Below are positions 9,081 to 57,644 of a stretch of DNA of 64,000 nt, one piece after another (position 1 is the first letter of the stretch; each line of letters begins with the position of its first letter). Position numbers and translations under genes: made by a program. The stretch comes from Actinomycetota bacterium. Its GTDB lineage: Bacteria > Actinomycetota > UBA4738 > CALAEC01. The stretch is taken from positions 80,410-144,409 of the forward strand of contig JBOGVZ010000049.1 in the NCBI GenBank assembly GCA_050692985.1, given 5' to 3'. The notes under the pieces were generated by a model. It searched no databases. It was not told the origin of the DNA and worked only from the letters and a program-made list of their open reading frames with translations.

Positions 9081-9375
9081 GGGGACGACCGGTCCCGCGG
9101 GCGAGGAAGGGGGAGCGGGGCCTGCCGCGCCCCCTCCTCGGGCGGGTCCCGACAGCCTTCGGTGACATTTCTCGGAAGAACCGGCCAATCCCGGAATCCG
9201 AACTTGACGCGGTTGTCCGGAACGGCCAAGATTCCCGGGCGAGGAAGGCAACCACTGGGCGATCCGGCCCGGTTGAGCGGAGGGAGGTGGTTGTCGAGGA
9301 CCAACGCCGTTGTCGGAGCTCTCCATGGGCTCCCTGCCCGTCGAATCCCTTTTCCTACACAGGAGGAACCGCTTG

Positions 9376-15280: not shown

Positions 15281-15402
15281 ACCTCTCCCCCCCTTTCAGG
15301 GTCCGTAGGCGGACGAACTCTAGGCTTTTCCCGACTTGCGGCGCAACCCTCGACCTGGGGGTATCGACCTCCTTGGCCGGCTCTTCTTGTGTGACATGCC
15401 GC

Positions 15403-17352: not shown

Positions 17353-17368
17353 AGGGCCCTGCGGGTGG

Positions 17369-18001: not shown

Positions 18002-18045
18002 GGCCCGCCAAGTGTAGCGGGTGCCCGCGCGCAGGGGCGTCGGTG

Positions 18046-18792: not shown

Positions 18793-19303
18793 CAGAGACC
18801 TCCTCCTCTCCCAGCACCTCGGCCAGGCGCTTCCGCGCCCGGTGGAGGTGCACCTTGGCGGTCGAGGTGGCGCATCCCATGATCTCGGCCACCTCGGCCA
18901 CCGGTCGATCCTCGAAGTAGTGCAGGACCACCGCGGCCCGCTGCGAGGACGGCAGTCCCAGCAGCGCCCGGCGGAGGTCCGGGTCGGACACTGGCTCGGT
19001 CCGTCCCGGGTCCTCGACCTCCGCCTGGAGCACGGTCCGCCGGCCGGCCCGCAGCGACCGCGACGCCAGCCTGATGGCCACCCGGCGGACCCAGGCACCC
19101 GGACGTTCGTACCGGGAGATGCGCCGCCACCGCGCGTACAGTCGGATGAAGGCCTCCTGGGCGACGTCTTCCGCCGCCGCCCGGTCGCCCAGCATCAGGT
19201 ACGCCGTGCGCACGATCGCGGGGTACTCGTCACGGAACAGCCAACCGAACGCGGTGTCCGTGTCCGTCTCCCGTGCCACTCGCAGCTCCGTGGTCAGTGC
19301 CAT
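18779..19303 (-). CDS. ECF-type RNA polymerase sigma factor (sigma-70 family, group 4)
   Basis: MALTTELRVARETDTDTAFGWLFRDEYPAIVRTAYLMLGDRAAAEDVAQEAFIRLYARW (region 2) and LPSSQRAAVVLHYFEDRPVAEVAEIMGCATSTAKVHLHRARKRL (region 4 HTH). Confidence 0.85.
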   Translation of the reverse strand: MALTTELRVARETDTDTAFGWLFRDEYPAIVRTAYLMLGDRAAAEDVAQEAFIRLYARWRRISRYERPGAWVRRVAIRLASRSLRAGRRTVLQAEVEDPGRTEPVSDPDLRRALLGLPSSQRAAVVLHYFEDRPVAEVAEIMGCATSTAKVHLHRARKRLAEVLGEEEVSDVAG

Positions 19304-19364
19304 ACCCTCCCACAGCCCCGGGCGTCGGGGAAGGTTTACCGACGACGGGGCCCTTCCCGGAGGC

Positions 19365-20030
19365 CTACCGGCGGTCGAGCTCCTCTCGAAGGGCTCCCAG
19401 GGCATCGGCTTCCTCGGGGGTGCGGGCCAGCCGGATCAGGTCGTCGACCGAGGCCACGCGGACCGTGAAGTCGCCCATCGGGACAGCCTCCGCGGCGCGG
19501 TCGAGGAGCTCGTAGGAGCCCACGCGGCGGAGCGCCCACCGCGGCGTCACGGTCCCGTACCGGATCCGGCCCGCTCCCAGCCGCTGGACGGCCAGCCGCA
19601 GGCGGCGACGGTTCATGGCGTCCGGCCGGGGAGCAACCTCAACCGTGCTCGGCCAGGCGGGCGCCCCGCGCAGCAACGCGGCCACGCCCCCGATCGCCAC
19701 ACATCGGACGCGGCGGCCCCTGACGAGGATCCGGAGCACCTGGGCCGGCCGGAAGCCTGGGGCGCTCGCATGTGCCAGGCGCTCGGACGGGGTCAGCCGC
19801 AGGAGGTCCCGGATTTCCTTCCGGTCCACGTCCATCCCGAGTCGGGGCTCGACCGCCAGCGAGGCCCCGCACGCTCGCAGGAGCCGCTCGAGCGTGTCGA
19901 CCCGGGGGATGCCCCCGCCACGCTCGATGCGCGCCACGGCGGGCTGAGGCAGCCCGGCCCGCCGGGCCACCTCGGCCTGGGTCAGCCCCGCACGAGCCCG
20001 TGCCTCCCGGAGGACCCTCGCAGCGTTCAC
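19365..20030 (-). CDS. XRE-family HTH transcriptional regulator with C-terminal domain of unknown function
   Basis: N-terminal LTQAEVARRAGLPQPAVARIERG matches a Cro/C1-type HTH. It lies 61 nt upstream of the ECF sigma gene on the same strand. Confidence 0.6.
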   Translation of the reverse strand: MNAARVLREARARAGLTQAEVARRAGLPQPAVARIERGGGIPRVDTLERLLRACGASLAVEPRLGMDVDRKEIRDLLRLTPSERLAHASAPGFRPAQVLRILVRGRRVRCVAIGGVAALLRGAPAWPSTVEVAPRPDAMNRRRLRLAVQRLGAGRIRYGTVTPRWALRRVGSYELLDRAAEAVPMGDFTVRVASVDDLIRLARTPEEADALGALREELDRR

Positions 20031-42429: not shown

Positions 42430-44088
42430 CTACGCGACCACCTTGAAGTAGGCCCACGGTGACCCGTCCTTCGCATGGTCCTCACCGTGGGAGAACCAGC
42501 CTCTGATGCGGAAGCTATAACCGCCAGCTGGATCGACGAGCTCGATGAATACCGAGCTCTTCTTCCCGAGCGTAGCCTTCAGCTTCCCGAGAGACTTCCA
42601 CTTGCCCGCGAAGCGCACCTCGAGTACCACGACGAGCTTGTTGCCCGCATGATTCGGGACGACCTTACCCTTATAGATCGGATCATCGCCTTCATCGTAC
42701 AGGTGGTATTTCGCTTGCTTTCCGTAGGCGCCGAGCAGCTTTCCCGTGGTAATTACCTTCACCCTCACGGTCCGCGAATTGCTCTCGGCGGGACGCCAAT
42801 CAGCCTCACCTGCCCACGTCGCTGTGTACTTGGTGTTCTTCGAGGGTGAAACCTTCACGGTGAGGTCACCGTCACCGTCAACGAGGCCCGAGGTGAGCAG
42901 GGTCTTCGTGCCATTGATCGGTTCCTTATAGATGGAGACCTTCTTGTTCGAGCTCTGGGCGAACGCATCGAGGTGTGCGGTCAGCTTGGCGGACTTCCCG
43001 AAGCCGATCGTGCCTTTCGACGTCGCGAGGGTCAGGGCGGTGATCTTGATCGCCGGTCCGTACAGCGAGTGGAAGTACGCATCTCCACCGTAGATGCTGG
43101 TCCCGGTCACGGCGAAGATTCGGGCTTCGTCCTCCGTGATCCCGACGCCCCTGGGGTAGAGGTAGGGCCCGGGAGTGCCATCGAAGTCCACCGATTCCGA
43201 TGGTGTGGGATCGCCGGCCGGAAACACATGCACGTCGGGCTCATAGATCCCATGAACCCCCCCCACCACGTGACTCGGCCCGACGGCGAGCGCATCCGGG
43301 TAGGGCGGCAGCGGATACGTGAACCCGGTGGGTTTGAGGTCGGACGCAGACAGCTGTCGGATCTCGTAGGGGGCGCTTGCCGTCACCAGGAGGCCCTGAC
43401 CGTCCGGCATCACGGCTACGTCCTGGATGTTGGTCATGTCGGAGGCCCAATTCTTGGCGACGAGCGCGGGCGGGTCGACGCTGATGTCGTAGCGGGAAAT
43501 GGAGCTGCCCGCCATGAACAGCGCGTCAGGGATGACCGGGCTCGAGGCGAACAGGCCGCATCCGAAGTCCCCTGTGTGCATCGTGACCACCTCGGTGGAG
43601 AGATCGACGGACGCCACTTGGGAACCGAAGGACCCACATGAATGCGCGAACCATAGGCGGCCGCCCCCGACCCCAAGCGTTCCCCAAGCCGTGACATCGA
43701 GTTCGATCGAACCGGTCTTCTCCAGCGTCACGGCGTCCACCTTGTAGATCTGATCGCGACCTTCGGCCACCGCATACAGCGTCTGGTCGATCAGGACCAT
43801 CCCCGCAGCACGGGGCACGTCCCCGACGGTGGCGGCGAGGGTCGCGTCGAAGTCCATGACGAGGATCTCCGAGGACCCAAGGCCGCCCGAGACGAACACG
43901 TGCCCGCCTTCCTCGTCGATCACGAGGTCGTAGAAATTCGCAAGGGGCAACTTCACGCCCACATCAGCGGATGCCTGAGCGGATGGCGTGACCTGTCCGA
44001 CCAGCGCTGTCAGTGTGGCGATCAACGCGACGGTGCCGATTGAGGCGCGAAGCGCCGAGGCTCCGGAATTGCTGGCCCGCAACATCAC
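42430..44088 (-). CDS. Secreted beta-propeller-like protein with Lys-rich C-terminal module, in a low-GC insert
   Basis: Signal MMLRASNSGASALRASIGTVALIATLTALVGQVTPSAQASA. YVTN/YncE-like repeats (HVFVSGG, LYAVAEGRDQIYKVD). Lys-rich C-terminus (KWKSLGKLKATLGKK...GYSFRIRGWFSHGEDHAKDGSPWAYFKVV). Codon usage is visibly more AT-rich than the flanking prmC/prfA. Confidence 0.6.
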   Translation of the reverse strand: MMLRASNSGASALRASIGTVALIATLTALVGQVTPSAQASADVGVKLPLANFYDLVIDEEGGHVFVSGGLGSSEILVMDFDATLAATVGDVPRAAGMVLIDQTLYAVAEGRDQIYKVDAVTLEKTGSIELDVTAWGTLGVGGGRLWFAHSCGSFGSQVASVDLSTEVVTMHTGDFGCGLFASSPVIPDALFMAGSSISRYDISVDPPALVAKNWASDMTNIQDVAVMPDGQGLLVTASAPYEIRQLSASDLKPTGFTYPLPPYPDALAVGPSHVVGGVHGIYEPDVHVFPAGDPTPSESVDFDGTPGPYLYPRGVGITEDEARIFAVTGTSIYGGDAYFHSLYGPAIKITALTLATSKGTIGFGKSAKLTAHLDAFAQSSNKKVSIYKEPINGTKTLLTSGLVDGDGDLTVKVSPSKNTKYTATWAGEADWRPAESNSRTVRVKVITTGKLLGAYGKQAKYHLYDEGDDPIYKGKVVPNHAGNKLVVVLEVRFAGKWKSLGKLKATLGKKSSVFIELVDPAGGYSFRIRGWFSHGEDHAKDGSPWAYFKVVA

Positions 44089-44147
44089 CGGATTGTCTGG
44101 GGCGGGAGAGATGCGGTCAATACAGGGAAGTGCGTATCTGAGAACGA

Positions 44148-45218
44148 TCAGGTAGAGGTAGCGCCGAGCTGGGCGGCGCGCTCGCGGGCGGTGAGGGCGT
44201 CGACGAACTCGTCCAGCTCCCCCTCCAGGATCTGGGTCAGGCGGTGGGAGGTGATCGGGATCCGGTGGTCGGTCACCCGGCTCTGGGGGAAGTTGTAGGT
44301 GCGGATCTTCTCGGCGCGGTCGCCGGTGCCCACCTGGGCCCGGCGGGCCTGGGCCTCCTCGCGCTGCTGGCGATCCTGCTCCAGCTTGAGCAGCCGGGCC
44401 CGCAGGTAGCGAAGCGCCTTCTCCTTGTTCTGCCGCTGGGACCGCTCCTCCTGGACGGCGATCACGATGCCGGTCGGCTTGTGGGTGAGCCGCACCGCGG
44501 AGTCGGTGGTGTTCACCGACTGGCCGCCGGGGCCGGAGGACCGGTACACGTCCGTCTCGATGTCCTCCTCCCGGACCTCGACCTCCACCTCATCGGCCTC
44601 GGGCAACACCGCCACGGTGGCCGTCGAGGTGTGGATGCGCCCGCCGGACTCGGTCTCGGGGATCCGCTGGACCCGGTGGACCCCGGACTCGTGCTTCAGC
44701 CTCGAGTAGGCCCGATCCCCGCGAACCTCCAGGACGATGTCCTTGAAGCCTCCCAGGTCCGACGGGCTCGAGGACAGGACCTCGGTCTTCCACCGGTGCC
44801 GCTCGGCGTACCGCCGGTACATCTCGAACAGGTCCGAGGCGAACAGCGCCGCCTCCTGCCCCCCGGCTCCGGCCCGGATCTCCAGCACGACGTTCTTGTC
44901 GTCGTAGGGATCCCTGGGCAGCAGCAGCACCTCCAGCCTGGCCTCCAGGTCCCGGGCTTCCGCGGCGGCCCGGTCGGCCTCCTGCCGGAAGTACGCCTGG
45001 GACTCGGGGTCCTTCTCCTCGTGCGCCAGCGCGCGCGCCTCCTCCGCGTCGGCAGTGGCCTTCTTGAGCTGCCGGTAAGCGGTGACGACCTCCTCGAGCT
45101 CCCGGTGGCGCTTGCCCAGGTCCCGGAGGCGGGCAGGGTCGGCCGCGACCTCGGGGCTCGACAGCTCCCGGGTCAGCTCCTCGAAGGACGCTTCGATCTC
45201 GTCCAGGCGCTCGCGCAT
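44148..45218 (-). CDS. prfA: Peptide chain release factor 1
   Basis: GGQ motif ([17 protein letters not shown]) and a PxT-type region, which assigns RF1. Confidence 0.95.
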
Positions 45219-45269
45219 GACGGCTCCATTATCCGCGCTGCGGGGAGCCTCGCCCCGGCCTCCGGCGCC

Positions 45270-46187
45270 CTACTCGGGGAGTGGCGGGGCGGGGGACTCG
45301 GCGGGGGCACCGGCGGCGGCCTCGCCCTCCATGGCGCGCACCTGCTCGAAGGCGGCGATGGCCACCTCGATCTGCTCCCGAGCGGGAGGCTTCGTGGTGA
45401 CCTTCTGGAGCCACAGTCCCGGGGCCATCAGGGCCCGCATGACCCGGGAGCCCGAGTGCCGGGCCCCCAGCCGCAGCAGCTCGAAGGCCAGCCCGGCGAT
45501 CAGCGGGATGGCGATGAGCCGCGAGCCGATCCGCCACGGCAGGGAGGGGTTGCCGAACAGGGCGAACACGAAGATCGTCAGGATCATCACGATCAGCAGG
45601 AAGTTCGTGCCGCACCGCACGTGGAGCGTGGAGTAGCGGTCCACGCTCTCCGGCTCCAGCGGGGCCCGGCGCTCGTACGCGGCGATCGTCTTGTGCTCGG
45701 CGCCGTGGTACTCGAACACCCGGCGGATCTCCTTCATCCGCCCGATCAACAGCAGGTACCCCAGGAACAGCGCCACCCGGAAGATCCCCTCGGCCACGTT
45801 GAGCAGGAGCCCCGAGCCCACCCGGTCCCGGGCCAGGCTCGACACGAAGGCGGGGAACACCACGAACAGGCCGACGAACAGGGCCAGGGCCACGGTCATC
45901 GACAGGGCCATCTGGCGGGGGGTGAGCTTCTCCTCCTCCTGGGCCGACTGGTTGGCCGAGATCGTGAGGGCCTTCACCCCGATGGCCAGGGCCTGCCCCA
46001 GGGCGATCACCCCGCGGAGGGGGGGCATCCGAAGGATGCGGTACCGCTTGGCGATCGAGTCGATCTCCCGCCCCTCGAGGTGGATCTCGCCGTCCGGCTT
46101 CCGGACCGCGATCGCCCAGTCGTCGCGGCCCCGCATCATCACGCCCTCGAGGACCGCCTGCCCCCCGTAGTAGTGCTCCTCGGCCAC
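45270..46187 (-). CDS. DUF1385-family membrane protein (YqhQ-like)
   Basis: GTG start. HYYGGQAVLEGVMMRG and HGAEHKTIAAYE motifs. This gene is a common prfA neighbour. Confidence 0.7.
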   Translation of the reverse strand: MAEEHYYGGQAVLEGVMMRGRDDWAIAVRKPDGEIHLEGREIDSIAKRYRILRMPPLRGVIALGQALAIGVKALTISANQSAQEEEKLTPRQMALSMTVALALFVGLFVVFPAFVSSLARDRVGSGLLLNVAEGIFRVALFLGYLLLIGRMKEIRRVFEYHGAEHKTIAAYERRAPLEPESVDRYSTLHVRCGTNFLLIVMILTIFVFALFGNPSLPWRIGSRLIAIPLIAGLAFELLRLGARHSGSRVMRALMAPGLWLQKVTTKPPAREQIEVAIAAFEQVRAMEGEAAAGAPAESPAPPLPE

Positions 46188-46228
46188 GAAGCCATTGTAG
46201 GGGCGGGCCGAGGAGGGCGGCCGCCCCC

Positions 46229-46735
46229 CTACCGGGCCGTCACCTCGATCGCCTCCGCGATCTCCGGGTCGAACGAGATGTGCCGGTTGTCGACGTACTC
46301 CACCCGCAGGGTGTGCCGCCCGGGCTCCAGCTCGACCTGGGCGATGCTCGAGTACGGCATCTGCTGGAGCTGCCCGTCCACGTACAGGTGCAGGTGGCCC
46401 CCCTGCTCGTCGGTGGGAGAGGTGGCGATCTCCGCACCCACCACCGCAACCTCGATCTCTACGGGCTCGCCGGCGGCGACCCGCTCCCCGGGCGCCGGCC
46501 GGAGGATCGCTACCGTGGCGTCGGGGGCCGGGGAGCCGAACGGCGAGAGCACCGCGCCGAGGACCACGAGCACCAGGCCGACGCCCAGGACCCACCGGCC
46601 CACCGACAGGCCGCCCTTCCAGGCGGCCGACAGGGCGACGGCCACCAGGACGAGCGCGCCGCCGGCGATCATCACCGGGACGTTCCCGCCCTCCGGCCCG
46701 GCGATGTGGGCGATCAGGGGAACCATCTCCTTCAT
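46229..46735 (-). CDS. Small membrane-anchored protein with periplasmic His-containing domain (possible Cu-associated accessory protein)
   Basis: MKEMVPLIAHIAG..., two TM segments, then a beta-rich domain with GGHLHLYVDGQ. It sits directly downstream of copCD-2. Function is unknown. Confidence 0.45.
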   Translation of the reverse strand: MKEMVPLIAHIAGPEGGNVPVMIAGGALVLVAVALSAAWKGGLSVGRWVLGVGLVLVVLGAVLSPFGSPAPDATVAILRPAPGERVAAGEPVEIEVAVVGAEIATSPTDEQGGHLHLYVDGQLQQMPYSSIAQVELEPGRHTLRVEYVDNRHISFDPEIAEAIEVTAR

Positions 46736-46799
46736 TCTGATCGTATCTTCCCTTCCGGCGAGTGCCGGGCCGACGTCATCCCGGCCAACGTCGCGGCGT

Positions 46800-48752
46800 T
46801 CACCCTTCGATCTCCTCCCTGAAGTACGCGTCGACCGGGGTTCCCTCCGGCGTCGAGCCCTCCACCCGGAACGTCCACCGGCCCGCCCCGAGGTCCTCCT
46901 GGGCCACGAAGTGCCCCGGGGAGAGCACAACCGGGTCCAGCAGGAGCGGTGCCCCGGTTTCGGGAGCGGCCTCGAAACGGGCGACCTCTACCGGCTGCTC
47001 GGCCCCTTCTGGGGTGAGGAAGGTGAGGTGGACCTCGTTGGGGCCTTCCTTCCCCGGATCGACGAATCCCTGGATCGAGATCCCGTTCGGCAGCGCGATC
47101 GTGTAGATGGTGGGCTGGCCCTCCGCCTCGGAGACCGTGATGTCCTGGGGTGGGAGGCGGGTGCGGAGCCCGAGGTCGATCGTCCGGGAGTCCCCGCCCA
47201 GGAGGACCAACGCGTCGACCTCCCAGGAGCCGTCGACCGAGAGGTTGGGCCCCTCGGCTCGCCACGCTGCCTGCCCGACGCTCTCCAGGTCCAGCTCCGA
47301 GGGCGCGATGTCCGGCCGAGAGGGGAGGGAGAACGACAGACGAACGCCAGTCGCGTCCACGGGCTCTCCCTCGCCGTCCGTGACCCTCACGTCGAATCGA
47401 TTGACCCCCGCCGTGCCGGGGGTGGCGGTCAGCCGGACATGGAGCAATCCCGCGGGATCCGACCCCTCGGCCACCACGCGGGCGGGAGCAACCGGAGGGG
47501 GGGCCTGGGCCGGCGGGGGGAGACCGGCCATCAGGCCGGTGAGCCCGAAGACTCCCGCCCCGATGGCCAGCTCGGCGCCCACCGTGCGGCGGAGGGTCCC
47601 GAACAGCCGGCCGCGCGAGGAGATGCGGGGGACGATCCGGTACCGGTTGTAGGCGCCCAGGGCCAGCAGACCCAGGAACAGGGCGCTCTTGCCCACCACG
47701 GTCAGGCCGAAGCCCGTGTCGATCAGGCGATCCGGCTCCAGGCCCACCTGGTTCAGCGCGCGGAGGACCCCCGTCACGGCCACCACGGGGAGGGCCACCG
47801 TGGCCAGCGCGGAGAACCGGCGGACGGCACCGGAGCGTTCCTCGTCCGGCTCCCCCCTGATCCCCACCAGGAGCCACAGCAGCCCTCCCACCCAGGCCGC
47901 CACGCTGAGGATGTGGACCCACTGCACCCCGACGTGCAGGGGCGCGTTCTCCACGGCGCTGGCATGGCCGGCGAAGGCGTGGACCAGCATGGCGAGGGCG
48001 GCCGCCGCGGCGAGGATCGCGGCGATCCACCGGCGGGGCCGGAGCGCCGAGGCCGCGGTCGCCGGCAGGGCCAGCAGGACGACGGCGCCGCGCGCCACGA
48101 GGAGCCGGCCCCGCTCGGATCCCAGCAGCTCGGCCGCGGGGACGTCCACGGCGGCACGCTCGGCCAGGAACATGCCGAGGACGCCGAGGGCGGCCGCGGC
48201 CCAGGCGAGCCACAGCAACCCCGGCACCGGACTCCGTGCCCGGAAGACAAGGAGGCGCCCCAGGGCCCCGCCGAACAGCAACGCGAGCCCCCAGTAGAAG
48301 GCCCACCGGGATCCGACGGCCAGGGGGGTGGGACGCTCCTGGGTCGGGTAGGACCCCTTGGGCTCGGCGACAGGCTCCACCGCCTGGCCCACCCCGAAGG
48401 CGAACGACCCCGTGGTGACGTGACCGTCGGCCGTGGAGAGGACCCGCCAGCTCACCGTGTACGTGCCCCGGGACAACTCCGGCAGCGACACCCTGAGCCC
48501 GCGTGGCTGGCCGGCGACGCCCTCGAGGGGGCCGACCTCCACGGGGGCTCCGGTGGAGTCGAACACCCGGATCTGCGACAGCCCGTGATCGGGCGGCTCG
48601 GTGAACGTGATCACGATCTCCGGCGGGGCGGTGTCGAGCACATCGCCGTTGGCCGGGGAGGAGCTCTGCAGGAGCGCGTGGGCGTGGGCGGCCGGGCCGG
48701 TCATCACCAGCCCGGCCGCCGCCAGCCCGAGAACGACGAGCGCCCGCCGCAC
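46800..48752 (-). CDS. copCD: Fused CopC-CopD protein, second copy
   Basis: MRRALVVLGLAAAGLVMTGPAAHA-HALLQSSSPANGDVL. CopC domain (YTVSWRVLSTADGHVTTGSFAFGV), then CopD TM helices, then a C-terminal soluble domain. Same architecture as 15403-17352. Confidence 0.8.
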   Translation of the reverse strand: MRRALVVLGLAAAGLVMTGPAAHAHALLQSSSPANGDVLDTAPPEIVITFTEPPDHGLSQIRVFDSTGAPVEVGPLEGVAGQPRGLRVSLPELSRGTYTVSWRVLSTADGHVTTGSFAFGVGQAVEPVAEPKGSYPTQERPTPLAVGSRWAFYWGLALLFGGALGRLLVFRARSPVPGLLWLAWAAAALGVLGMFLAERAAVDVPAAELLGSERGRLLVARGAVVLLALPATAASALRPRRWIAAILAAAAALAMLVHAFAGHASAVENAPLHVGVQWVHILSVAAWVGGLLWLLVGIRGEPDEERSGAVRRFSALATVALPVVAVTGVLRALNQVGLEPDRLIDTGFGLTVVGKSALFLGLLALGAYNRYRIVPRISSRGRLFGTLRRTVGAELAIGAGVFGLTGLMAGLPPPAQAPPPVAPARVVAEGSDPAGLLHVRLTATPGTAGVNRFDVRVTDGEGEPVDATGVRLSFSLPSRPDIAPSELDLESVGQAAWRAEGPNLSVDGSWEVDALVLLGGDSRTIDLGLRTRLPPQDITVSEAEGQPTIYTIALPNGISIQGFVDPGKEGPNEVHLTFLTPEGAEQPVEVARFEAAPETGAPLLLDPVVLSPGHFVAQEDLGAGRWTFRVEGSTPEGTPVDAYFREEIEG

Positions 48753-48755
48753 CGC

Positions 48756-49378
48756 TCAGGCCGCTCGCTTCCTCCACAGGGCCATGACCGCCACCACCAG
48801 GGCCAGGACCCCCGCCGCGATCCCCACGTAGGCCAGTGTTTGCGCCGACGAGGCCTCGTCGGACGCCCCCGCCTCCGCGCTCACCTGCTCGATGAGGTCG
48901 CCCAGCTCGGCGTTCGACGGGTCATCCACGGGGAACGCTACCTCGCCCGGATCTTCGATGTCGCTGAAGGTCTCGGGCCCGGAGGTGAACATCTCGTCCA
49001 CCTCCTGGTCCTCTACGGTCCCGAAGATGCGGAAGGTCCACGTCCCAGCGCGGGTCGGATAGATGTCCGTGTTGTAGTTCCCCGGCTCGCCGAAGACGCC
49101 CACCACGAACGCCGGCTCGAGGACAGCCGTCATTGTCTCGCCCTCGAAGCGATCTCCACCTGAAGCTCGACGCCCTCGACGACGGGGTCGCCCCGCGAGT
49201 CGGTGATGGTCACCTCCGGGCCGTTCTTCGCGTTGGCGAAGGCGGGCTCGTCGTACCACCCCACCACGAACTCGTAGTCTCCGACTTGGCGGCTCTCGTG
49301 CGCCGCGGCCGGAGCGGCCGGCATCGCCACCAGCGCGCCGGCGGCCAGCGCGATCACCGCGCGTGCAGCGTTACGCAT
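48756..49378 (-). pseudogene. ycnI: YcnI-like copper-binding protein gene disrupted by a frameshift
   Basis: The N-terminal piece (49130-49378: signal + AHESRQVGDYEFVVGWYDEPAFANA...VELQVEIASRARQ*) and the C-terminal piece in another frame (48756-49259: ...FEGETMTAVLEPAFVVGVFGEPGNYNTDIYPTRAGTWTFRIF...TM anchor) both align to the intact YcnI at 17369-18001. The frame switches near 49130-49160. Confidence 0.6.
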
Positions 49379-49451
49379 GTGTCCTCCCTTTTCGTAGGTT
49401 CGACCGACGCTCGCCGAGAGACCCGGGCGGCGCCGAGGTGCTACGGATCGG

Positions 49452-50042
49452 TCAGGAAGAGGGAGGCCCCCGAAGGGTGAGCCCGCCCAAGGCCACGTGC
49501 GCGTGCGACGGGGTGTAGACGACGGCGGAAGGGGGTCTCAGCGCGCGGGGCGCCCGGGCCCTTCGGGGCCGCATCGCGGATACCAGCGCTTCGACCATCC
49601 TCGTCACCAGGACGACCAGCGCTGCGATGGCCAGGGCAACCACGACCTGGAGGCCGACTCCGATCAGGAACGCCGGTTCGCGCACCAGGTCGAGCGGCCC
49701 GTGACCCGACAGGATCCGCTCGACGAACTCCAGGAGGCCGAAGCCGAGGACCTGCACCAGGATCAGGCGGGCCGCGGCGTGAGCGAGCACGCCTCCGAGT
49801 GACGGCGCTCCCCCGGATCGCCGCCACAGAGCCAGGTGGATGAACGTGGCGACCACTCCGGCAACGGCGATCGCCGGGAGCGCGGGCCACCAGGCGTGCC
49901 CGGTGCTGTGGAGCAGGGCCTCCCGTTCGGCCTCGTGAGGAACGGCGAGCCGGAAGGCCACGACGTGAGCCAGGGCGATCCCGGACCCGGCCATCGCTCC
50001 GAGGACCAGCCGCATGCGGAGGCTGACGCGTCCGCCCATCAT
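49452..50042 (-). CDS. His-containing polytopic membrane protein of unknown function
   Basis: 196 aa with 4-5 predicted TM helices and HVVAF...HEAEREALLHSTGH. It is located upstream of the ycnI-copCD-2 unit. Confidence 0.45.
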   Translation of the reverse strand: MMGGRVSLRMRLVLGAMAGSGIALAHVVAFRLAVPHEAEREALLHSTGHAWWPALPAIAVAGVVATFIHLALWRRSGGAPSLGGVLAHAAARLILVQVLGFGLLEFVERILSGHGPLDLVREPAFLIGVGLQVVVALAIAALVVLVTRMVEALVSAMRPRRARAPRALRPPSAVVYTPSHAHVALGGLTLRGPPSS

Positions 50043-50066
50043 GGCGAGTCTACCCGGAGGCCGGGG

Positions 50067-50573
50067 TTACCGGAGCAGCAGGAACACGAGGGCGCCGGCG
50101 ACCCCCAGGGCGATGAGCGCCGCCAGGACCACGGCTCGGGACCGCTGGGCCGCCGCCGGGTCCGCGGGGATGGGGCGCAGGGACTCCCTCGCCGTGAATG
50201 CCGGGCTGGGGTGGGCGTGCCACCACTCCCGCAGCGAGCGGCACCGGCCGTCTTCGGCGAACTCCAGCAGGAACACTCCGTCGAGGCGGGTGGGCTCGCC
50301 GTTCCGGATCTTCACGTAGGAGGCCCACCACCGGACGATGGCCCGTTCCCCATCCACCGACAGGGTCTCGAACCCGAACGCGATGTCCCGCTGCGTCTCG
50401 GGGATCTCCGACCAGTACCGGTAGATGGCCGCCCGCCCGGTCATGGGCTCGTCGAACGGCTTCTCCCGATACTCGGCATCCTCGGTGAACAGCTCGGCGG
50501 CCGCGCCCGGGTCGCGGGTCTCCCACGCGCGGCCGTACCGCTCCAGCCAGCCCTCGACCGCGGCGCGGTCCAC
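50067..50573 (-). CDS. SnoaL-like (NTF2-fold) protein with C-terminal TM anchor
   Basis: MDRAAVEGWLERYGRAWETRDPGAAAELFTEDAEYRE is typical of SnoaL/DUF4440 proteins. It has a C-terminal hydrophobic helix. Confidence 0.55.
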   Translation of the reverse strand: MDRAAVEGWLERYGRAWETRDPGAAAELFTEDAEYREKPFDEPMTGRAAIYRYWSEIPETQRDIAFGFETLSVDGERAIVRWWASYVKIRNGEPTRLDGVFLLEFAEDGRCRSLREWWHAHPSPAFTARESLRPIPADPAAAQRSRAVVLAALIALGVAGALVFLLLR

Positions 50574-50579
50574 CGGGTG

Positions 50580-50783
50580 CTAGGCCTTCTTGCCGTAGCG
50601 GCGCTGGAACCGCTCCACGCGGCCGCCGGTGTCCACGAACTTCTGCTTGCCCGTGTAGAACGGATGGCACACGTTGCAGATCTCGACGTGGATCTCGGGC
50701 TTGGTGGCCCGCGTCTCGAACGTGTTGCCGCACGAGCACCGCACCACCGCGGGGCCGTACTCGGGATGGATCCCCTGCTTCAT
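50580..50783 (-). CDS. rpmE: 50S ribosomal protein L31 (Zn-ribbon type A)
   Basis: [47 protein letters not shown]. Confidence 0.95.
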
Positions 50784-50835
50784 CTCTCGCCTTTCAGCTC
50801 ACGCGCCTGGGGGCCTCCGGCCGCCGGACGCAGTG

Positions 50836-51063
50836 TCAAGAATACGAGAGGCCGTGGTCCTCCATCAGCCCCTCCACGTACCGGTGGAACGCCAGGTGGT
50901 CGCTCCGGTATTCCCGCTCCTCATCGTCCTTGCGGACGGTGACGACGTCGTACGGGCCGCCCGGCGTGTCCCGGTCCTCGGTGATCTTCACCGGCTCCCA
51001 ACCGTCGTCCTCGACGGCCTGGCGCAGCTCGACGAGCGTCGGATCGTCTCCCCACCCCGCCAT
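50836..51063 (-). CDS. Small acidic hypothetical protein
   Basis: 75-aa ORF (MAGWGDDPTLVELRQAVEDDGWEPVKITED...) between rho and rpmE. No recognisable motif. Confidence 0.35.
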   Translation of the reverse strand: MAGWGDDPTLVELRQAVEDDGWEPVKITEDRDTPGGPYDVVTVRKDDEEREYRSDHLAFHRYVEGLMEDHGLSYS

Positions 51064-51086
51064 CGGCTCTCCCCCCGAACCCCCGC

Positions 51087-52574
51087 TCAGTCCCGCATCG
51101 GGGCCTTGGCGATCTCCTTGAGGAACTGCTCGTTCGACTTCGTGGCCCGGATCTTGTCGATGAGCATCTCGATGGAGGCCCCGCTGTCGAGGGCGTGGAG
51201 CACCCGGCGGAGCCGCCACGTGAGAGCCAGCTCCTCGCTGGGCATGAGGCGCTCCTCCTTGCGGGTCCCCGAGGCCTCGATGTTGATGGCCGGGAAGATC
51301 CGCTTCTCGGAGAGCTGCCGGTCGAGCCGGAGCTCCATGTTCCCGGTGCCCTTGAACTCCTCGAAGATCACCTCGTCCATGCGCGACCCGGTCTCCACCA
51401 GGGCGCTGGCGATGATCGTCAGCGACCCGCCCTCCTCGATGTTTCGGGCCGCCCCGAAGAACCGCTTGGGCGGGTACAGCGCGGTGGAGTCCACGCCTCC
51501 CGACAGGATCTTCCCGGACGCGGGCGCTGCCAGGTTGTAGGCCCGGGCCAGCCGGGTGACCGAGTCGAGCAGGATGGCCACGTTCTGGCCGGACTCCACC
51601 AGCCGCTTGGCACGCTCCAGCACCAGCTCGGTGACCTGGATGTGCTGGTCGGCCGGCTTGTCGAACGTGGAGTACACGACCTCGGCGGCCTCCACGGTCC
51701 GCTGCCAGTCCGTGACCTCCTCGGGACGCTCGTCCACCAGCAGGACCATCACGTGGGTCTTCGAGTCGGCGGTGATGATCCCGTTGGCGATCTGCTTGAG
51801 GACCGTGGTCTTGCCGGCCTTGGGCGGCGAGACCACCATCCCTCGCTGCCCCTTCCCGATGGGGGCCACCAGGTCGATGATCCGCTCGGTCACCGCGGTC
51901 GGTCCGCTCTCCAGGCGGAACCGCTCCTCCGGGAACAGGGGGGTGAGCTTCTCGAACTGGGGGCGCTCGCGGGCCTCATCCGGGCTCATCCCGTTGACGG
52001 TGTCGATGCGCAGCAGCGCGAAGTACTTCTCGCTGTCCTTGGGGTGGCGCACCGCGCCGGTGACCTCGTCACCCTTGCGCAGCGCGAACCGGCGGATCTG
52101 CGACAGCGAGACGTAGACGTCCTGGGCGCTGGGCAGGTATCCGCCGGTGCGGAGGAAGCCGTACCCCTCCGGGAGGATGTCGAGGATGCCGGTGTGCACC
52201 GGCGCCTCGGCCAGCTCCTCCTCGGTGGCCTCGCGGGGTCCCCGCTCACGCCGGCGATCCCGTCCCCGGCGCCCGCGACCGTCCCGGCCGTCGGGCCGGC
52301 GGTCCCTGGGCGGGGCCTGCGTTCGGACCTGCCCGCCACCGCCCTCGGAGCCCTGGCGAGCCTCGCCGGAGCCCTGGGCGGCCCGGGAGGCCTCCCCGCC
52401 GTCTCCGGCGGACCGGCGGGCCTCCCCGTCGTCCGAGCGGGCCACGATGGCGTCGATGAGGTCACCCTTCTTCAGCCGCTGGTGCCCCTCGACGCCCAGC
52501 CCCGAGGCGATCTCCTGGAGCTCGGGCAGGACCTTCTGCTCGAGCTTGGATCGATCCACGGTTCGAGATTCCAC
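51087..52574 (-). CDS. rho: Transcription termination factor Rho (with Arg/Gly/Asp-rich N-terminal insertion)
   Basis: N-terminal Rho_N ([35 protein letters not shown]), RNA-binding CSD, and a RecA-type ATPase (PPKAGKTT). A ~80-aa RG/RD-rich insert separates the N-terminal domains. Confidence 0.95.
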
Positions 52575-52575
52575 G

Positions 52576-53241
52576 TTACGCTCCTTCCTTACCGAGCTTC
52601 TTCTTCAGCTCACCCCAGTCCGCCAGGAACCTCTCGAGGCCCGCGTCGGTCAAGGGGTGCTTCACCAGCTTCGAGAACACGTCGTACGGCATGGTGGCAA
52701 TGTCAGCGCCGGTCAGGGCCGCCTCGACCACGTGCATCGGATGGCGGAGCGATGCGGCCAAGACCTGGGTCTCGTAGCCCTGGACCCGGTAGATGTCGCA
52801 GATCTGCCGGAGGGCGTGCATCCCGTCCGCGGCCGCATCGTCGATGCGACCCAGGAACGGAGACACGATGTACGCGCCGATCTCCGCAGCAAGGATAGCC
52901 TGTGCCGGCGAGAACGTCAGCGTCACGTTGATCTTGATCCCGTCGCCGACCAGCCGCTTGCCGCACTGGAGACCGTCGGGGGTCATGGGAACCTTGACCA
53001 CGGCGTTCGGTCCCAGCGAGGCCAGGTACTTCCCTTCCTCGTACATCGCCTCGGCCTGTGGCTCGGTGGTCTCCAGGGACACGTCGCCCTCGACCTCGTC
53101 CAGGACCTCCTTCCACACCCGCTCCGGCTCGAGCGCTTCCTTGAAGATGAGGGAGGGGTTCGTGGTCACGCCCGACAGGACGCCCCACCGGTTGATCTCC
53201 CGGATCTCCTCGATGTTCGCCGTGTCCAGGAACAACCTCAC
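52576..53241 (-). CDS. Fructose-6-phosphate aldolase/transaldolase (TalC/Fsa subfamily)
   Basis: GTG start. [13 protein letters not shown]...GVTTNPSLI...VKVPMT (Schiff-base Lys region). ~221 aa, which is the short Fsa-type length. Confidence 0.8.
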
Positions 53242-54212
53242 CGCTTCCTCCCCCCTTCGAGCTCCAGCACCTGTTCGCGGTCGGCGCCTCCCCGGGCACG
53301 GACGCGAGCGGTGGCCCGCTCCACCACGAGGTCGATGATGGCCGTGATCGCCTGGTCCAGGTTGTACGAGGCCACCACGGGCCAGTCGTGGGACAGGGCC
53401 TGGCTCTTGATGTACTTCTGCACCTTCCGGATGTTGTCGAAGTTGTCCAGGTAGCGGTCGAAGGGACGGGCCGCCGAGTCCGCTGACCGGGCCTGGAAGT
53501 GGCTGCGGTGCAGCTCCTCGTCCTCCACGGTCACCACCACCGGCACGGCCACGACCCGCTCGGTGAACGCCAGCACGTCGAGGAACCCCGGGACGATGTG
53601 TGCGCCCTCGATGATCACGCTGATCCCCTCGACGGCCGAGCGCTCGATCAGGGCCCGGACGCCCACGGCCACCGCGTGGGTCTGCTCGCGGAATCCCACG
53701 ATCACCTGGTCCGCCGCCCGGGCCGGCGGCTCCCGCAGCGCCGTGTCCGCATCGAACGACGACGTGTACAGGGTGGGCATCAGCTCCCGGGAGAACAGCG
53801 CCCGCATGACTTCCCGGACCGCATCGGTGGGGATCACCCGGACCACGCCCAGGCGGGCGGCGATCTGCGTGGCCATCGTGGACTTCCCCACGCCGGTAGA
53901 CCCGCCGATGAGGATCACCAGGGGCACGTCGAGCGCGGCCACCTCCTGCCACCGCATGAAGTTCTTGGCGTAGCGCTCGCCGGCGATGTCGTCGAGGACC
54001 CGCACCGTCAGCGCCCTCAGCTCCTCGGTGGTCACCGAGCTGAGCCCCCGGTCCACGAGCACGTCCTCGATGCGCTCGGCCACCTGGTAGGCGCGGTACG
54101 GGTTCAGGCCGGTCACCGAGACCTGCGAGGCCATCAGCCCCTTCGAGTACGGAAGGCCGGGTTCTCCGTCCGACACGATGATGTGGGTGTTGCGCTTCGT
54201 CTTCTTCTTCAT
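53238..54212 (-). CDS. 2-phosphoglycerate kinase (archaeal-type, P-loop)
   Basis: 324 aa. P-loop LILIGGSTGVGKSTMATQIA, with the N-terminal region preceding it as in methanogen 2PGK. Its ATG overlaps the stop of the cyclic-2,3-diphosphoglycerate synthetase gene. Confidence 0.6.
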   Translation of the reverse strand: MKKKTKRNTHIIVSDGEPGLPYSKGLMASQVSVTGLNPYRAYQVAERIEDVLVDRGLSSVTTEELRALTVRVLDDIAGERYAKNFMRWQEVAALDVPLVILIGGSTGVGKSTMATQIAARLGVVRVIPTDAVREVMRALFSRELMPTLYTSSFDADTALREPPARAADQVIVGFREQTHAVAVGVRALIERSAVEGISVIIEGAHIVPGFLDVLAFTERVVAVPVVVTVEDEELHRSHFQARSADSAARPFDRYLDNFDNIRKVQKYIKSQALSHDWPVVASYNLDQAITAIIDLVVERATARVRARGGADREQVLELEGGRKR

Positions 54213-55546
54213 CTCGCTCCCGCGCGCTCGACCGCCAGCCGAGCCGTGTCCAGCAGCACCTCCGACAGCTCGCCGTCACCGTCCAGCGTCTCGGCCCGGT
54301 TGTCGGCGAACACCACCTCGGCGCCCCGCGCGACGGCCCGGTCGGCGGCCACGTCCACCGCGGCCGCCTTGAGCTCGGTCACCAGCACGTCGAAGTCGGG
54401 GGCCGCCTCGAGGTCCTCGGCCAGCCCCGCCCGGTCGGCCAGGCGGTGGCTCGCCCCGACCACCGTGCATCCGAACCCTCGTTCCAGGGAAGCCACGAGG
54501 TCTGGGAGGCCGGCCTGGGGCGCCGTGGTCGTGAAGAACACCTTCTTCCCCCCGACTTCGCCCAGTGGCACGGGACGGAAATCCGTGATGACGATCCGCG
54601 CGTCTGGACGTAGCCTTCGGACGTGGGATACCAGATCGGAAAGATCCTGCGGCCCGCGTTGAGGGCCACCTCCCATTGTAAAGATGACGGCGTCGGATAG
54701 CAATACCCTGAACGGTCCCAGGTACCCCGCCAGGTGCTCCTGCGGCGCCGAGGCCGGGCACACCAGCACACCCGCATCCCAGGGGATGGGGGGCACCGCC
54801 GCGCCGCTCCCCTCCAGCAGGACCAGCCCGGCACCCCGTTCCTCGGCCACCGCGGCGGCCTCGCGGACGTTCGACACGAACGGCCGCCCCGCCAGGCCCC
54901 CCCCGCACCGACGGGCCCCCACGGTCGTGACCCCGGTGGTCAGCGCGTCCTCCAAGTAGTCGCTGGCCGCGTGCTCGCCGGCCCGGACCAGGTCCACCAG
55001 GCGCTCGAGGTCCACCGAGCCCGGGTCGGCCACCTGCGGGGCGGGCGGACCGCCCCGGCCCATGGCCACGACCACCGGGCGCATCCCCGCCCGGTCGGCC
55101 ACCCGGGCGGCCTCCCCGGCGATGGCGGTCTTCCCCGTTCGCTTGCCGGTCCCGATCACCGCCAGCGTGGGCGTGGACAGCGGGGGCCCGGTCACCGGCG
55201 GCTCCAAGGAGAAGTCCGGCCCCACGTAGCGGAGGCCGGCCGACAGGGCCACCGCGGCGACCAGCATCCGCTCCCGGTAGCCGAGCACCGGCTCGTCCGA
55301 GAGGTCCAGGACCACCTCCGGCCGGTGGGCCACGATGGCCTTCACCAGCCCCGCCGCCAGATCGTCGCCCGCGACCTCCACGGGGACCGGACCGAAGTCC
55401 AGGTTGCCGCCGGCGTCGATCTTCTCCACCCCGCCCACGAACAGGCACGCCGCCGGCTCGTACCCGAGGGTGCGGGCGGCCGCCAGCCCCCACCTGGTGG
55501 TGGGTGGGTAGTGCTCGCCGTCCACGAGGACCAGGGCTCGGATCAT
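54209..55546 (-). CDS. Cyclic 2,3-diphosphoglycerate synthetase
   Basis: 445 aa. N-terminus MIRALVLVDGEHYPPTTRWGL and P-loop-like LAVIGTGKRTGKTAIAGE. Its length and pairing with 2PGK resemble the archaeal cyclic-2,3-diphosphoglycerate synthetase. Confidence 0.6.
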   Translation of the reverse strand: MIRALVLVDGEHYPPTTRWGLAAARTLGYEPAACLFVGGVEKIDAGGNLDFGPVPVEVAGDDLAAGLVKAIVAHRPEVVLDLSDEPVLGYRERMLVAAVALSAGLRYVGPDFSLEPPVTGPPLSTPTLAVIGTGKRTGKTAIAGEAARVADRAGMRPVVVAMGRGGPPAPQVADPGSVDLERLVDLVRAGEHAASDYLEDALTTGVTTVGARRCGGGLAGRPFVSNVREAAAVAEERGAGLVLLEGSGAAVPPIPWDAGVLVCPASAPQEHLAGYLGPFRVLLSDAVIFTMGGGPQRGPQDLSDLVSHVRRLRPDARIVITDFRPVPLGEVGGKKVFFTTTAPQAGLPDLVASLERGFGCTVVGASHRLADRAGLAEDLEAAPDFDVLVTELKAAAVDVAADRAVARGAEVVFADNRAETLDGDGELSEVLLDTARLAVERAGAR

Positions 55547-55573
55547 CGTCGCGCGTCCCGGCTGGCGCCCGGC

Positions 55574-56374
55574 CTACTCGGCCGGAAGCGGCGCTTCCTG
55601 CCGCGGCTCCAGCGTCAGGGTCTCCAGCTCTCGGTGGTACTGGGTGCCGCTGGCGACCGAGAAGTGGGCGTTGAGGGTGGACCCTCCGAAGGGGAACTTG
55701 CGGAAGATCTTCACCTCGTCCCCCTCGATCTCCAGGACGTTGTAGCAGGGTTTGGTGTGGCCGCGCAGCCGCAACGACGCGCAGGTCCCGGCGTTGGCCA
55801 CGTAGAGGTCCTCCAGCCGCCACACGTAGGGCACGTGCTTGTGCCCCGTCAGGACCACGGTGACCCCGGTGCCGATGAGGACCTCCAGGAGGTCGCCGGC
55901 ATCGTAGACGATGTTGCGCTCCCGGCCGGTTCCCGGCACGGGGAGCAGGTGGTGGTGCAGGACGAAGATCTTGAGCTCGGCCGGAACCGAGAACTGCTCC
56001 TTGATCCAGCCGTACCGCTCCCGCCCGATCTGGCCGTGGTCGAGGTCTGGCTCGCTGGAGTCCGCTCCCACGATCCGAACCCCCCGGACGTCGACCGACC
56101 AGTGCCTGGGGCCGATCAGCTCCTCGAAGTGCACGTAGCCCACGTTTCGGGCGTCGTGGTTGCCCGGCACCGAGTACACCGGGGCCTTGATCCGCTCCAG
56201 GTACGCCACCGCGGTCTTGAACTCCTGCCGGTAGCCGAAGTTCGTGAAGTCCCCGGTGCACAGGACGGCGTCGGGCTGGAGCTCGTTCAGCTCCACGATC
56301 ACCCGGTTCATCAGGTTCGGCACGAAGTACGGGGAGCCGATGTGCGGGTCCGAGATGTGAGCGATGGTGGCCAT
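55574..56374 (-). CDS. Metallophosphoesterase
   Basis: MATIAHISDPHIG, CTGDFT, VPGNHD and GHKHV calcineurin-like motifs. The upstream part of the ORF is frame overlap. Confidence 0.7.
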   Translation of the reverse strand: MATIAHISDPHIGSPYFVPNLMNRVIVELNELQPDAVLCTGDFTNFGYRQEFKTAVAYLERIKAPVYSVPGNHDARNVGYVHFEELIGPRHWSVDVRGVRIVGADSSEPDLDHGQIGRERYGWIKEQFSVPAELKIFVLHHHLLPVPGTGRERNIVYDAGDLLEVLIGTGVTVVLTGHKHVPYVWRLEDLYVANAGTCASLRLRGHTKPCYNVLEIEGDEVKIFRKFPFGGSTLNAHFSVASGTQYHRELETLTLEPRQEAPLPAE

Positions 56375-56441
56375 CGTCGGGCCCAGTCTACCCAGCCGCG
56401 CACTTCGGGGACCGAGCGGGGGCCGTGAGAGGATTGGCGGC

Positions 56442-57614
56442 GTGAACCTCCTGGACCTCCTGATCGTCCTCCTGGTGGCGATCTCCATCTATACGGGGTT
56501 CCGCCGGGGAGCGGCCCTCCAGCTGGTGACGTACACGGGGCTGATCCTGGGGCTGGCGGCCGGAGCGCTGCTGGCCCCGGTGCTGGCCCGGACGGCCACC
56601 GAGCCGTTCGCCCAGGCCACCATCGCCCTGGTGACGCTGCTGGTGCTGGCGGCCCTGGGGGACGCCATCGGCTGGGCCCTGGGGACCCGGGCGTGGCTGG
56701 CGGCCCGCCGAAGCGCGATCAGCCCGGTCGACCAGGGCGCCGGATCCCTGGTGGCCGGCCTGGCCGCGTTGCTGGCGGTGTGGTTCCTGGCGTTCAACCT
56801 GGTCCAGGGCCCGTTCCCGGTGGTCTCCAAGCAGATCCGGGGCTCGGCCATCGTGCGGGGGATCGACAACGTCCTCCCCCGGCCGCCCTCTGTGTTCTCC
56901 CAGGTGCGCCAGTTCCTCAACCGGTTCGGGTTCCCCGAGGTGTTCGCCAACCTCCCCCCGGCCCCGGCCGGTCCCGTGCAGGGCCCGTCGGAGGCCGAGG
57001 CGAACGCGGCCTTCCAGGCCGCGGCCGCCAGCACGTTCAAGGTGGTGGGCCAGGCCTGCGACCGTATCCAGGAGGGCAGCGGATTCCTGATCGAGCCGAA
57101 CTACGTGGTGACGAACGCCCACGTGGTGGCGGGCGTGGGCTCGCCCCAGGTCCAGCCCCAGGGCGGAGCGACGCTACCCGCCACCACCGTGCTGTTCGAT
57201 GACGACCTCGACCTGGCGGTGCTCCGCATCGAGACCAGCCCATCCGACGACCTGGACTTCATCGAGGGCACCGCCGGCCGGGGGGCCACCGGTGCCGTGG
57301 TCGGCTACCCGGGCGGAGGCGGCCTCACCGGGGTGGATGCCGCGGTCCGCCAGCGACTGGTGGCCCGGGGCTACGACATCTACAACGACGACCAGGTCCG
57401 GCGGCGGGTCTACGAGCTCCAGGCCGTGGTCCGGCCGGGGAACTCGGGCGGCCCGTTCGTGACCACCGACGGCCTGGTGGCCGGCGTTGTCTTCGCGGCG
57501 TCGACCACCGACGGGAACATCGGCTACGCGCTCACCTCCGACGAGGTGCTGCCGATGGTCCAGCAGGCCCTGGGGCGAACCGAGACAGTGGGCACCGGCC
57601 CCTGCATCCGGTGA
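56442..57614 (+). CDS. Membrane-anchored CvpA-domain/trypsin-like serine protease (MarP-like)
   Basis: GTG start after RBS gagagga. An N-terminal 4-TM CvpA-like domain is followed by a chymotrypsin-fold domain (TNAHVV His, DLAVLRI Asp, GNSGGP Ser). Confidence 0.7.
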   Translation: MNLLDLLIVLLVAISIYTGFRRGAALQLVTYTGLILGLAAGALLAPVLARTATEPFAQATIALVTLLVLAALGDAIGWALGTRAWLAARRSAISPVDQGAGSLVAGLAALLAVWFLAFNLVQGPFPVVSKQIRGSAIVRGIDNVLPRPPSVFSQVRQFLNRFGFPEVFANLPPAPAGPVQGPSEAEANAAFQAAAASTFKVVGQACDRIQEGSGFLIEPNYVVTNAHVVAGVGSPQVQPQGGATLPATTVLFDDDLDLAVLRIETSPSDDLDFIEGTAGRGATGAVVGYPGGGGLTGVDAAVRQRLVARGYDIYNDDQVRRRVYELQAVVRPGNSGGPFVTTDGLVAGVVFAASTTDGNIGYALTSDEVLPMVQQALGRTETVGTGPCIR

Positions 57615-57644
57615 GGATCGGCACCCGGCAGCATCGCGCCGGAG

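Follow-up and report, generated by a model that had tools for sequence, protein, structure and literature searches.

The locus described here raises two questions: whether a gene divided between two reading frames in a copper cassette has been lost through a real mutation, and to which family this gene belongs. The cassette occupies positions 46229-50042 (minus strand) of a 64,000-nt stretch, hereafter the window, of contig JBOGVZ010000049.1 from the Actinomycetota bacterium assembly GCA_050692985.1. It consists of four genes, which encode a 196-aa membrane protein, the divided protein, a CopC-CopD-Ig (immunoglobulin-like) fusion, and a DUF4399 protein with a transmembrane (TM) helix. The divided gene was taken for a YcnI paralog in the initial annotation. 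The label His-Ig is used below for the accessory gene family formed by this gene (His-Ig-2) and its intact window paralog (His-Ig-1), and the fusions encoded next to them are called CopCD-2 and CopCD-1, respectively. The two open reading frames (ORFs) of His-Ig-2 are parts of one gene with a 1-nt deletion between them, and the gene is not a member of the YcnI/DUF1775 family by any test available. Taken as a whole, the account that we regard as likely comprises a recent one-base deletion in His-Ig-2 of the copper cassette, a YcnI-like mechanism that the intact protein would follow, and a loss that would be tolerated.

Position and reading of the frameshift

A split YcnI-like copy in overlapping frames with a single-nucleotide indel near 49130-49160 had been proposed, and both statements were borne out. 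The 82-aa ORF at 49130-49378 (minus strand) aligned to residues 3-70 of His-Ig-1 (17369-18001, minus strand) with 45% identity (E = 1e-15), and the ORF at 48756-49259 (minus strand) aligned to residues 56-175 of the same paralog with 36% identity (E = 5e-21). The fragments thus covered consecutive stretches of the intact protein, to an extent that chance does not explain. The frame-corrected His-Ig-2 comprises 207 aa and retrieved 542 homologs, of which the closest 22 (65-83% identity) were encoded by single ORFs, nearly all of 205-212 aa.

A codon-level alignment with five ortholog genes (from loci L003, L007, L009, L010, and L004; fetched loci are cited by L numbers throughout) contained a lone gap in His-Ig-2, which is one base long and falls in Gly codon 77. 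The orthologs read GAGATC-GGG/GGC/GGT-TTCGAG, and the window reads GAGATC-GC-TTCGAG, with the 2-nt remnant GC of the Gly codon at 49149-49150. The allele with the deletion is ATCGCTTC, the intact one is ATCGGCTTC, and the ortholog protein across the junction is VELQVEI-G-FEGETMTAELEP. Comparison of the orthologous loci in relatives, also suggested earlier, revealed uninterrupted single ORFs, with the gap in the window only. The context ATC-GC-TTC is not a homopolymer; at most, GG was reduced to G.

Past the deletion, the original frame adds six codons (ASRARQ) and ends at TGA (49130-49132), approximately 20 nt beyond the frameshift. This stop overlaps an ATG codon (ATGA, 49130-49133), which is the ancestral conserved internal Met codon (ETMTA in orthologs) and serves as the start of the called 125-aa ORF (P0023, NCBI locus tag ACRDI0_06600, 48756-49133). 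A frame plot of GC content at third codon positions (GC3) would have been a means of finding further frameshifts in the window and so gauging the quality of the assembly, but it is unsuited, as such short shifts resemble normal ATGA-overlapped gene junctions unless homology is used. The 5′ fragment is preceded by an intact GGGAGG ribosome-binding site and encodes the signal peptide (codons 1-26), His27 (cac, 49298-49300) in the sequence AAA|HESRQ, and the first four beta-strands, counted on the AlphaFold2 (AF2) model of ortholog P0003. The 3′ part (48756-49148, -1 frame), which lies inside the ORF at 48756-49259, supplies the other half of the beta-sandwich, then a linker helix, and finally the C-terminal TM helix, which is followed by an RKR tail; the corrected C-terminus reads as the hydrophobic YVGIAAGVLALVVAVMALW followed by RKRAA.

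Real mutation or sequence error

The initial annotation had left open a choice between pseudogenization and a homopolymer-type assembly error. Three assemblies carry the lesion: the 148-kb source contig, a contig of GCA_975305695.1 that is 100% identical to window 48063-59133 (11,071 nt), and a Logan contig of run SRR27067772 that matches window 45693-50694 exactly. Their contig ends differ, so they are separate assemblies, and their agreement argues against an assembler artefact. The first option is therefore favored, and the homopolymer part of the second was dropped. A genuine mutation in the sequenced population is quite probable, and His-Ig-2 is most likely a young loss-of-function allele, that is, a pseudogene. 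All 24 family-invariant columns of alignment A2 were retained in His-Ig-2, and the ratios of nonsynonymous to synonymous substitution rates (dN/dS) between the corrected gene and its orthologs (0.17-0.27) lay within the range of intact ortholog pairs (0.14-0.36). No sign of relaxed selection or further decay was found by either measure. Since the gene has kept its invariant residues, its ribosome-binding site, and a dN/dS like that of its orthologs, the lesion is either very young or not real.

Several points weigh against a recent loss of the gene. All three assemblies appear to derive from the single run SRR27067772; exact-protein look-ups found the 82-, 125-, and 196-aa proteins only in this run and in GCA_975305695.1, which is a metagenome-assembled genome (MAG) whose source reads were not identified. 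Because the locus proteins occur in no other sample, the assemblies are independent at the level of assembly software only, not of reads. An exact-pattern scan of JGI metagenome contigs with a 40-mer containing an optional G detected neither allele. No relative with more than 83% identity was available to show fixation of the allele, and the lack of secondary decay is equally the look of a consensus error. Finally, full loss of function is assumed, and both halves could still be produced by way of the ATGA overlap.

A consensus or sequencing artefact, with an intact gene whose G is missing from reads common to all the assemblies, would fit an organism carried by one run only and a sequence that shows no other lesion, retains every invariant residue, and evolves at a normal dN/dS, as an intact gene does. 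Within the same project, coverage is very low for some MAGs, as the titles of L017 (cov_1.07) and L019 (cov_2.98) indicate. The His-Ig gene also appears frame-split in L086 (5001-5424) and L087 (4992-5443), two MFD-named and presumably long-read MAGs in which the breaks could be assembly errors, and the region of the ENA contig L003 in which CopCD is expected after the His-Ig gene (8627-11100) was called as short ORFs only. The frame breaks in these three loci may be assembly indel errors, so breaks in His-Ig genes can be artefacts. Against this explanation, the site is not a homopolymer, three differently bounded assemblies agree base for base over 5-11 kb, and prfA, rho, atpD, and both CopCD genes are full length in the window. 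Only k-mers that occur twice or more enter Logan contigs, and deletion errors are rare in short reads, which also counts against an artefact; we consider it unlikely. Very improbable is a functional split, in which both halves would be made by termination-reinitiation at the ATGA or by programmed frameshifting and would work jointly. The stop/start overlap at 49130-49133 is a classic arrangement for coupling, and the first half retains an intact ribosome-binding site. However, the ATG goes back to an internal Met codon of the ancestral gene, hence the overlap is a coincidence; the break cuts the beta-sandwich of the P0003 model in two; and the membrane would separate the halves, since the 3′ one has no signal peptide. 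Programmed frameshifting was rejected, as the junction is without a slippery heptamer and the split is not conserved, all orthologs seen being single ORFs. A recent mutation thus remains the preferred origin of the split.

Relationship of the His-Ig family to YcnI

The identification of the accessory gene as a YcnI paralog did not hold. No match to DUF1775 (PF07987) was found by Pfam in either window copy or in any of 47 family members at E ≤ 1, whereas B. subtilis YcnI (PDB 7ME6), used as a positive control, scored 8.8e-20 against the same library. Alignment of the family with 7ME6 and 3ESM by hhalign gave a probability of 0.04%. Neither structure was found by a family-profile search of PDB at E ≤ 10, and YcnI was not among the best 50 PDB matches of the P0003 model in Foldseek, so that no superposable YcnI fold was obtained there. 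True DUF1775 genes were also sought nearby: a regular expression for their type of N-terminus gave no match in the window or in any fetched locus. NCBIfam contains no model for the His-Ig family.

It could be argued that the family consists of true YcnI/DUF1775 homologs which have diverged beyond sequence detection. Both groups share a signal peptide, an N-terminal His, a beta-sandwich, a C-terminal TM helix, and a CopCD neighbor (PMC8424229). This relationship is nevertheless improbable, given the failure of all 47 members to match PF07987 at a cutoff that the control passed by far, the negligible hhalign probability, and the absence of 7ME6 and 3ESM from the profile search and from the best 50 Foldseek matches. 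Moreover, the weak sequence signals lean toward Ig domains of the YtkA/FixH type: a sub-threshold YtkA match was detected by Pfam in His-Ig-1 (E = 0.0069), 12 of the 47 members gave weak YtkA matches, and DUF5060 was matched in some members. The family aligned with the C-terminal Ig domain of the CopCD fusions with a probability of 27% in hhalign, which is insufficient, and homology to these domains is not claimed.

In the records examined, His-Ig genes are unnamed or labelled "hypothetical protein", and a reading based on gene context can mistake them for YcnI. By analogy, the best functional hypothesis for the His-Ig family would be that its members work like YcnI.

Distribution, conserved features, and structure of the family

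The family comprised 2,233 cluster representatives (50% identity) at E ≤ 1e-3 and 1,469 at E ≤ 1e-10. Among 77 species-representative genomes, the carriers were uncultured Actinomycetota and Chloroflexota (Thermomicrobiales and Limnocylindria); one carrier is an isolate, Thermalbibacter longus (L025). Across 63 genes from both phyla, the motif A|H-E-x-R-x-V-G...V-G-[FW]-x-x-E-P (the bar marks the predicted cleavage site) was conserved, with His and Glu44 present in 63/63, Glu28 in 58/63, and an aromatic residue (F/W41) found in the family. These acidic and aromatic positions are the family's own; they have no alignment to Glu50 and Trp137, the partners of the monohistidine brace in YcnI. In all 63 genes, A/G-H follows a hydrophobic leader. 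Because this His always stands after the small residue ending the leader, cleavage by signal peptidase would expose it as residue 1, as predicted from the sequences.

A CopC/CopCD gene was located within 1.5 kb downstream on the same strand for 73 of the 74 testable His-Ig genes; in total, 82 genes were surveyed, of which 73 were followed by a gene starting with CopC, eight were cut by contig ends, and one was an exception. In Actinomycetota loci, the 196-aa membrane protein is encoded 5′ of the His-Ig gene, and TM-DUF4399 accompanies CopCD.

The AF2 model of P0003 (pLDDT 83.5) consists of a signal helix, an eight-strand beta-sandwich (residues 27-132), a linker helix, and a C-terminal TM helix (residues 177-206). 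Its best PDB matches in Foldseek were periplasmic copper binders with a beta-sandwich fold, namely FetP/P19/FtrA, CrdA of H. pylori, and the DUF4426 protein PA0388. Their nature speaks for the proposed function, and the weakness of the matches (E approximately 1e-3, TM-scores 0.35-0.66) speaks against it.

No description of the His-Ig family was found in the literature on YcnI, DUF1775, CopC, CopD, or gene neighborhoods, and no search was aimed at the family itself. The published survey of CopD neighborhoods covered Proteobacteria only (PMC11923076). It is about an even chance that His-Ig is an undescribed family of membrane-tethered copper-binding proteins with an N-terminal His, which replaces YcnI as the obligate partner of CopC/CopCD. 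Such a family would provide a convergent, or undetectably remote, second solution for Cu(II) hand-off, joined in Actinomycetota by two further uncharacterized conserved partners, the 196-aa membrane protein and TM-DUF4399.

Proposed function and consequences of the probable loss

In an intact His-Ig protein, the signal peptide would be cut after A-x-A, leaving His1 exposed. The membrane-tethered beta-sandwich would then bind Cu(II) via the N-terminal His, plausibly together with the near-invariant Glu28 and/or the invariant Glu44, and exchange it with the CopC domain (a histidine brace) of the CopCD importer encoded alongside, in a manner similar to YcnI and YcnJ. We infer copper binding and exchange from the protein architecture and the gene linkage, by analogy with the known pair.

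Translation of the lesioned His-Ig-2 from its normal start would yield an exported stub of 56 residues with four of the eight beta-strands. The remainder would at best be re-initiated at the ATGA as a 125-aa polypeptide lacking a signal peptide. With half of the strands in one product and no export signal on the other, the His-Ig-2 protein is most likely non-functional, and a loss of function is the consequence that we infer. More speculatively, re-initiation at the ATGA might preserve translational coupling to CopCD-2. CopCD-2, the 196-aa membrane protein, and the DUF4399 protein remain intact. The bacterium probably tolerates being without copy 2, since the role of the partner is accessory and an intact paralogous module is present at 15403-18001; through this redundancy, His-Ig-1 and module 1 could compensate for copy 2.

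Organization of the cassette and its surroundings

The second CopC-CopD module and its flanking genes, a small His-containing membrane protein and a His-rich polytopic membrane protein, were all recovered in the sequence as previously outlined. Its placement downstream of prfA was reversed, as the module lies upstream of prfA by the direction of transcription.

The first cassette gene (49452-50042, minus strand; ORF reading) encodes the 196-aa polytopic membrane protein with nine His residues, which matched no Pfam or NCBIfam family in profile scans of the window ORFs. The motifs of this protein family are AH (in TM1), R..L..TGH.Y, Q...F...E..ER, and a C-terminal R.PP. Homologs are encoded immediately 5′ of the His-Ig gene in 15 GTDB-representative loci, all labelled Actinomycetota/Actinomycetes, and four more metagenomic loci were aligned with homologs 5′ of the His-Ig gene. 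The loci with homologs are L003, L004, L007, L009, L011-L016, L018, L019, L021-L023, L027, L033, and L045. The 196-aa protein is thus a conserved family itself, and in the sampled loci it was linked to the cassette in Actinomycetota only and not in Chloroflexota.

CopCD-2 (46800-48752, minus strand) is an intact 650-aa fusion of CopC, CopD, and a C-terminal Ig-like (FixH/YtkA-like) part, identified by Pfam and NCBIfam CopD/CopC matches; it has the YcnJ architecture and aligns to its orthologs over the full length. Its CopC (1.1e-22, 81.3 bits) and CopD (5.2e-21, 75.4 bits) matches exceeded the Pfam cutoffs, and the FixH match (8.1e-5, 23.1 bits with a cutoff of 23) was marginal. The N-terminus reads AHA|HALLQSSSP in the translation, with a later D-G-H motif (TADGHVTTG). 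The GTG start codon is positioned 3 nt past the His-Ig-2 stop, and the same arrangement is kept in orthologs.

The last gene (46229-46735, minus strand) encodes the TM-DUF4399 protein of 168 aa with an N-terminal TM helix and the motif GGHLHLYVDG. DUF4399 (PF14347) was detected in window 46229-46930 (1.8e-7, 31.9 bits) above the Pfam gathering cutoff of 28. The protein was called as a 168-aa gene in L001 and recurs beside CopCD in Actinomycetota loci. In L015, L017, L021, L023, L027, and L045, a TM-DUF4399 gene lies between the His-Ig gene and CopCD, and another often follows CopCD. DUF4399 is a recurrent and at times duplicated component of the cassette.

The cassette and a SnoaL-like gene (50067-50573) are inserted within the otherwise conserved gene string rho-rpmE-...-DUF1385-prfA (45270-50783, minus strand), with rpmE and the SnoaL-like gene on one side of the insertion point and DUF1385-prfA on the other. 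The orthologous cassettes are surrounded by FHA, PP2C, FtsW, and PBP genes in L004 and by genes for MeaB and methylmalonyl-CoA mutase in L009. Given these differing surroundings in relatives, the cassette appears to move as a unit. A scan of 44000-52700 for promoter and terminator consensus sequences gave nothing interpretable.

Module 1 and its relation to module 2

His-Ig-1 is an intact protein of 210 aa, approximately 40% identical to copy 2. It is encoded next to CopCD-1 (15403-17352, minus strand), a CopC-CopD-YtkA/FixH fusion with 40% identity to CopCD-2 over residues 22-636. In Pfam, CopCD-1 matched CopC (9.1e-22, 78.3 bits) and CopD (3.2e-18, 66.5 bits) above the cutoffs, and its C-terminal part matched FixH (2e-9, 38.1 bits) and YtkA (1.2e-7, 32.7 bits; cutoff 25.9). 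Its translated N-terminus is ARA|HALLSGSDP, followed later by SRVDGHPTGG; the N-terminal His and the D-x-H residues of both fusions are what we take to be the Cu(II) histidine-brace ligands of CopC. In both fusions, the extracellular C-terminal part of approximately 225 aa (residues ~425-650) looks like two tandem Ig-like domains. Only the first of these is recognized by FixH/YtkA, and the second carries a conserved pG-H-F...G-R-W-F motif and the weak His-Ig resemblance noted above.

Module 1 belongs to a larger unit (13271-19405, minus strand), which also includes genes for an extracytoplasmic function (ECF) sigma factor (18779-19405) and a possible anti-sigma ORF without a Pfam match (18046-19098), both upstream of His-Ig-1, and for a 669-aa secreted protein after CopCD-1 (13271-15280) with a weak PA-domain match. 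An LVIVD/PA protein is encoded in the same neighborhood in L004, L005, and L009.

Describing module 2 as a duplicate of a ycnI-copCD unit was an overstatement. Both module lineages are present in a related genome (L012; also L004/L005), which together with the approximately 40% identity indicates ancient paralogs rather than a recent duplication.

Comparison with known copper systems

YcnI has a signal peptide, the N-terminal His27, a C-terminal TM helix, and a CopCD neighbor (PMC8424229). In B. subtilis, YcnI and the CopC domain of YcnJ, whose architecture is CopC-CopD-YtkA/FixH, exchange Cu(II) between extracellular N-terminal-His sites, and copper-limited cells are no more than mildly impaired by deletion of ycnI (PMC12362106). 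The ycnKJI operon and the cassette have in common a three-part transporter fusion (PMC8424229, PMC12362106, PMC13344008), tightly linked adjacent genes for partner and transporter, and a small exported partner with a C-terminal TM tether and an N-terminal His exposed by cleavage. However, YcnI is a DUF1775 protein, and His-Ig has neither the DUF1775 signature nor detectable YcnI homology. The gene order is also reversed, with the partner preceding the transporter here and ycnJ preceding ycnI in B. subtilis. In contrast to ycnKJI with its YcnK, no YcnK-like repressor was recognized beside either module among the cassette ORFs, which were scanned without covering every flanking gene. Two extra conserved genes, for the 196-aa membrane protein and TM-DUF4399, are present here, and the partner gene is frameshifted in the window.

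Other systems resemble the cassette in part. Bradyrhizobium japonicum PcuD (pcuABCDE) and other DUF1775 proteins are, like His-Ig, accessory periplasmic copper proteins encoded beside CopC/CopD-type genes (PMC8424229), but PcuD is a DUF1775 member and the His-Ig family is not. In the YebY system, the genes that provide CopC and CopD functions are likewise joined by one for a small accessory DUF protein (PMC8689200, PMC11923076); unlike in the His-Ig cassette, YebY is a soluble DUF2511 protein, and CopC is not fused to CopD. CtaK, which takes part in copper trafficking, is anchored in the membrane (PMC13344008). The Ig domains of the YtkA/CtaK and FixH types (PF13115, PF05751) bear a weak likeness to His-Ig, with all matches below the curated thresholds, but CtaK is a lipoprotein without C-terminal anchoring, and the invariant N-terminal His motif is specific to the His-Ig family. 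FetP/P19/FtrA and H. pylori CrdA bind copper outside the cytoplasm; they are small proteins with a beta-sandwich fold and a membrane permease as partner. They matched the P0003 model with Foldseek E-values of 7e-4 to 4e-3, TM-scores of 0.32-0.41 (query length), and 10-19% identity. Unlike His-Ig, they have an Ftr-type transporter partner and no C-terminal anchor. Their metal sites are not known to be N-terminal His sites.

Significance

The frameshift itself is of little weight, as it affects a redundant accessory gene of one MAG and is a young loss-of-function allele or, at worst, an error. The family that it brought to light is of wider interest. Copper import by CopC/CopD is poorly understood, and YcnI (DUF1775) is the only accessory protein that has been characterized for it in Gram-positive bacteria. 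The His-Ig family is sizeable and unannotated, has the YcnI architecture and a strict CopC/CopCD linkage but no detectable YcnI homology, and seems to take the place of YcnI in two phyla.

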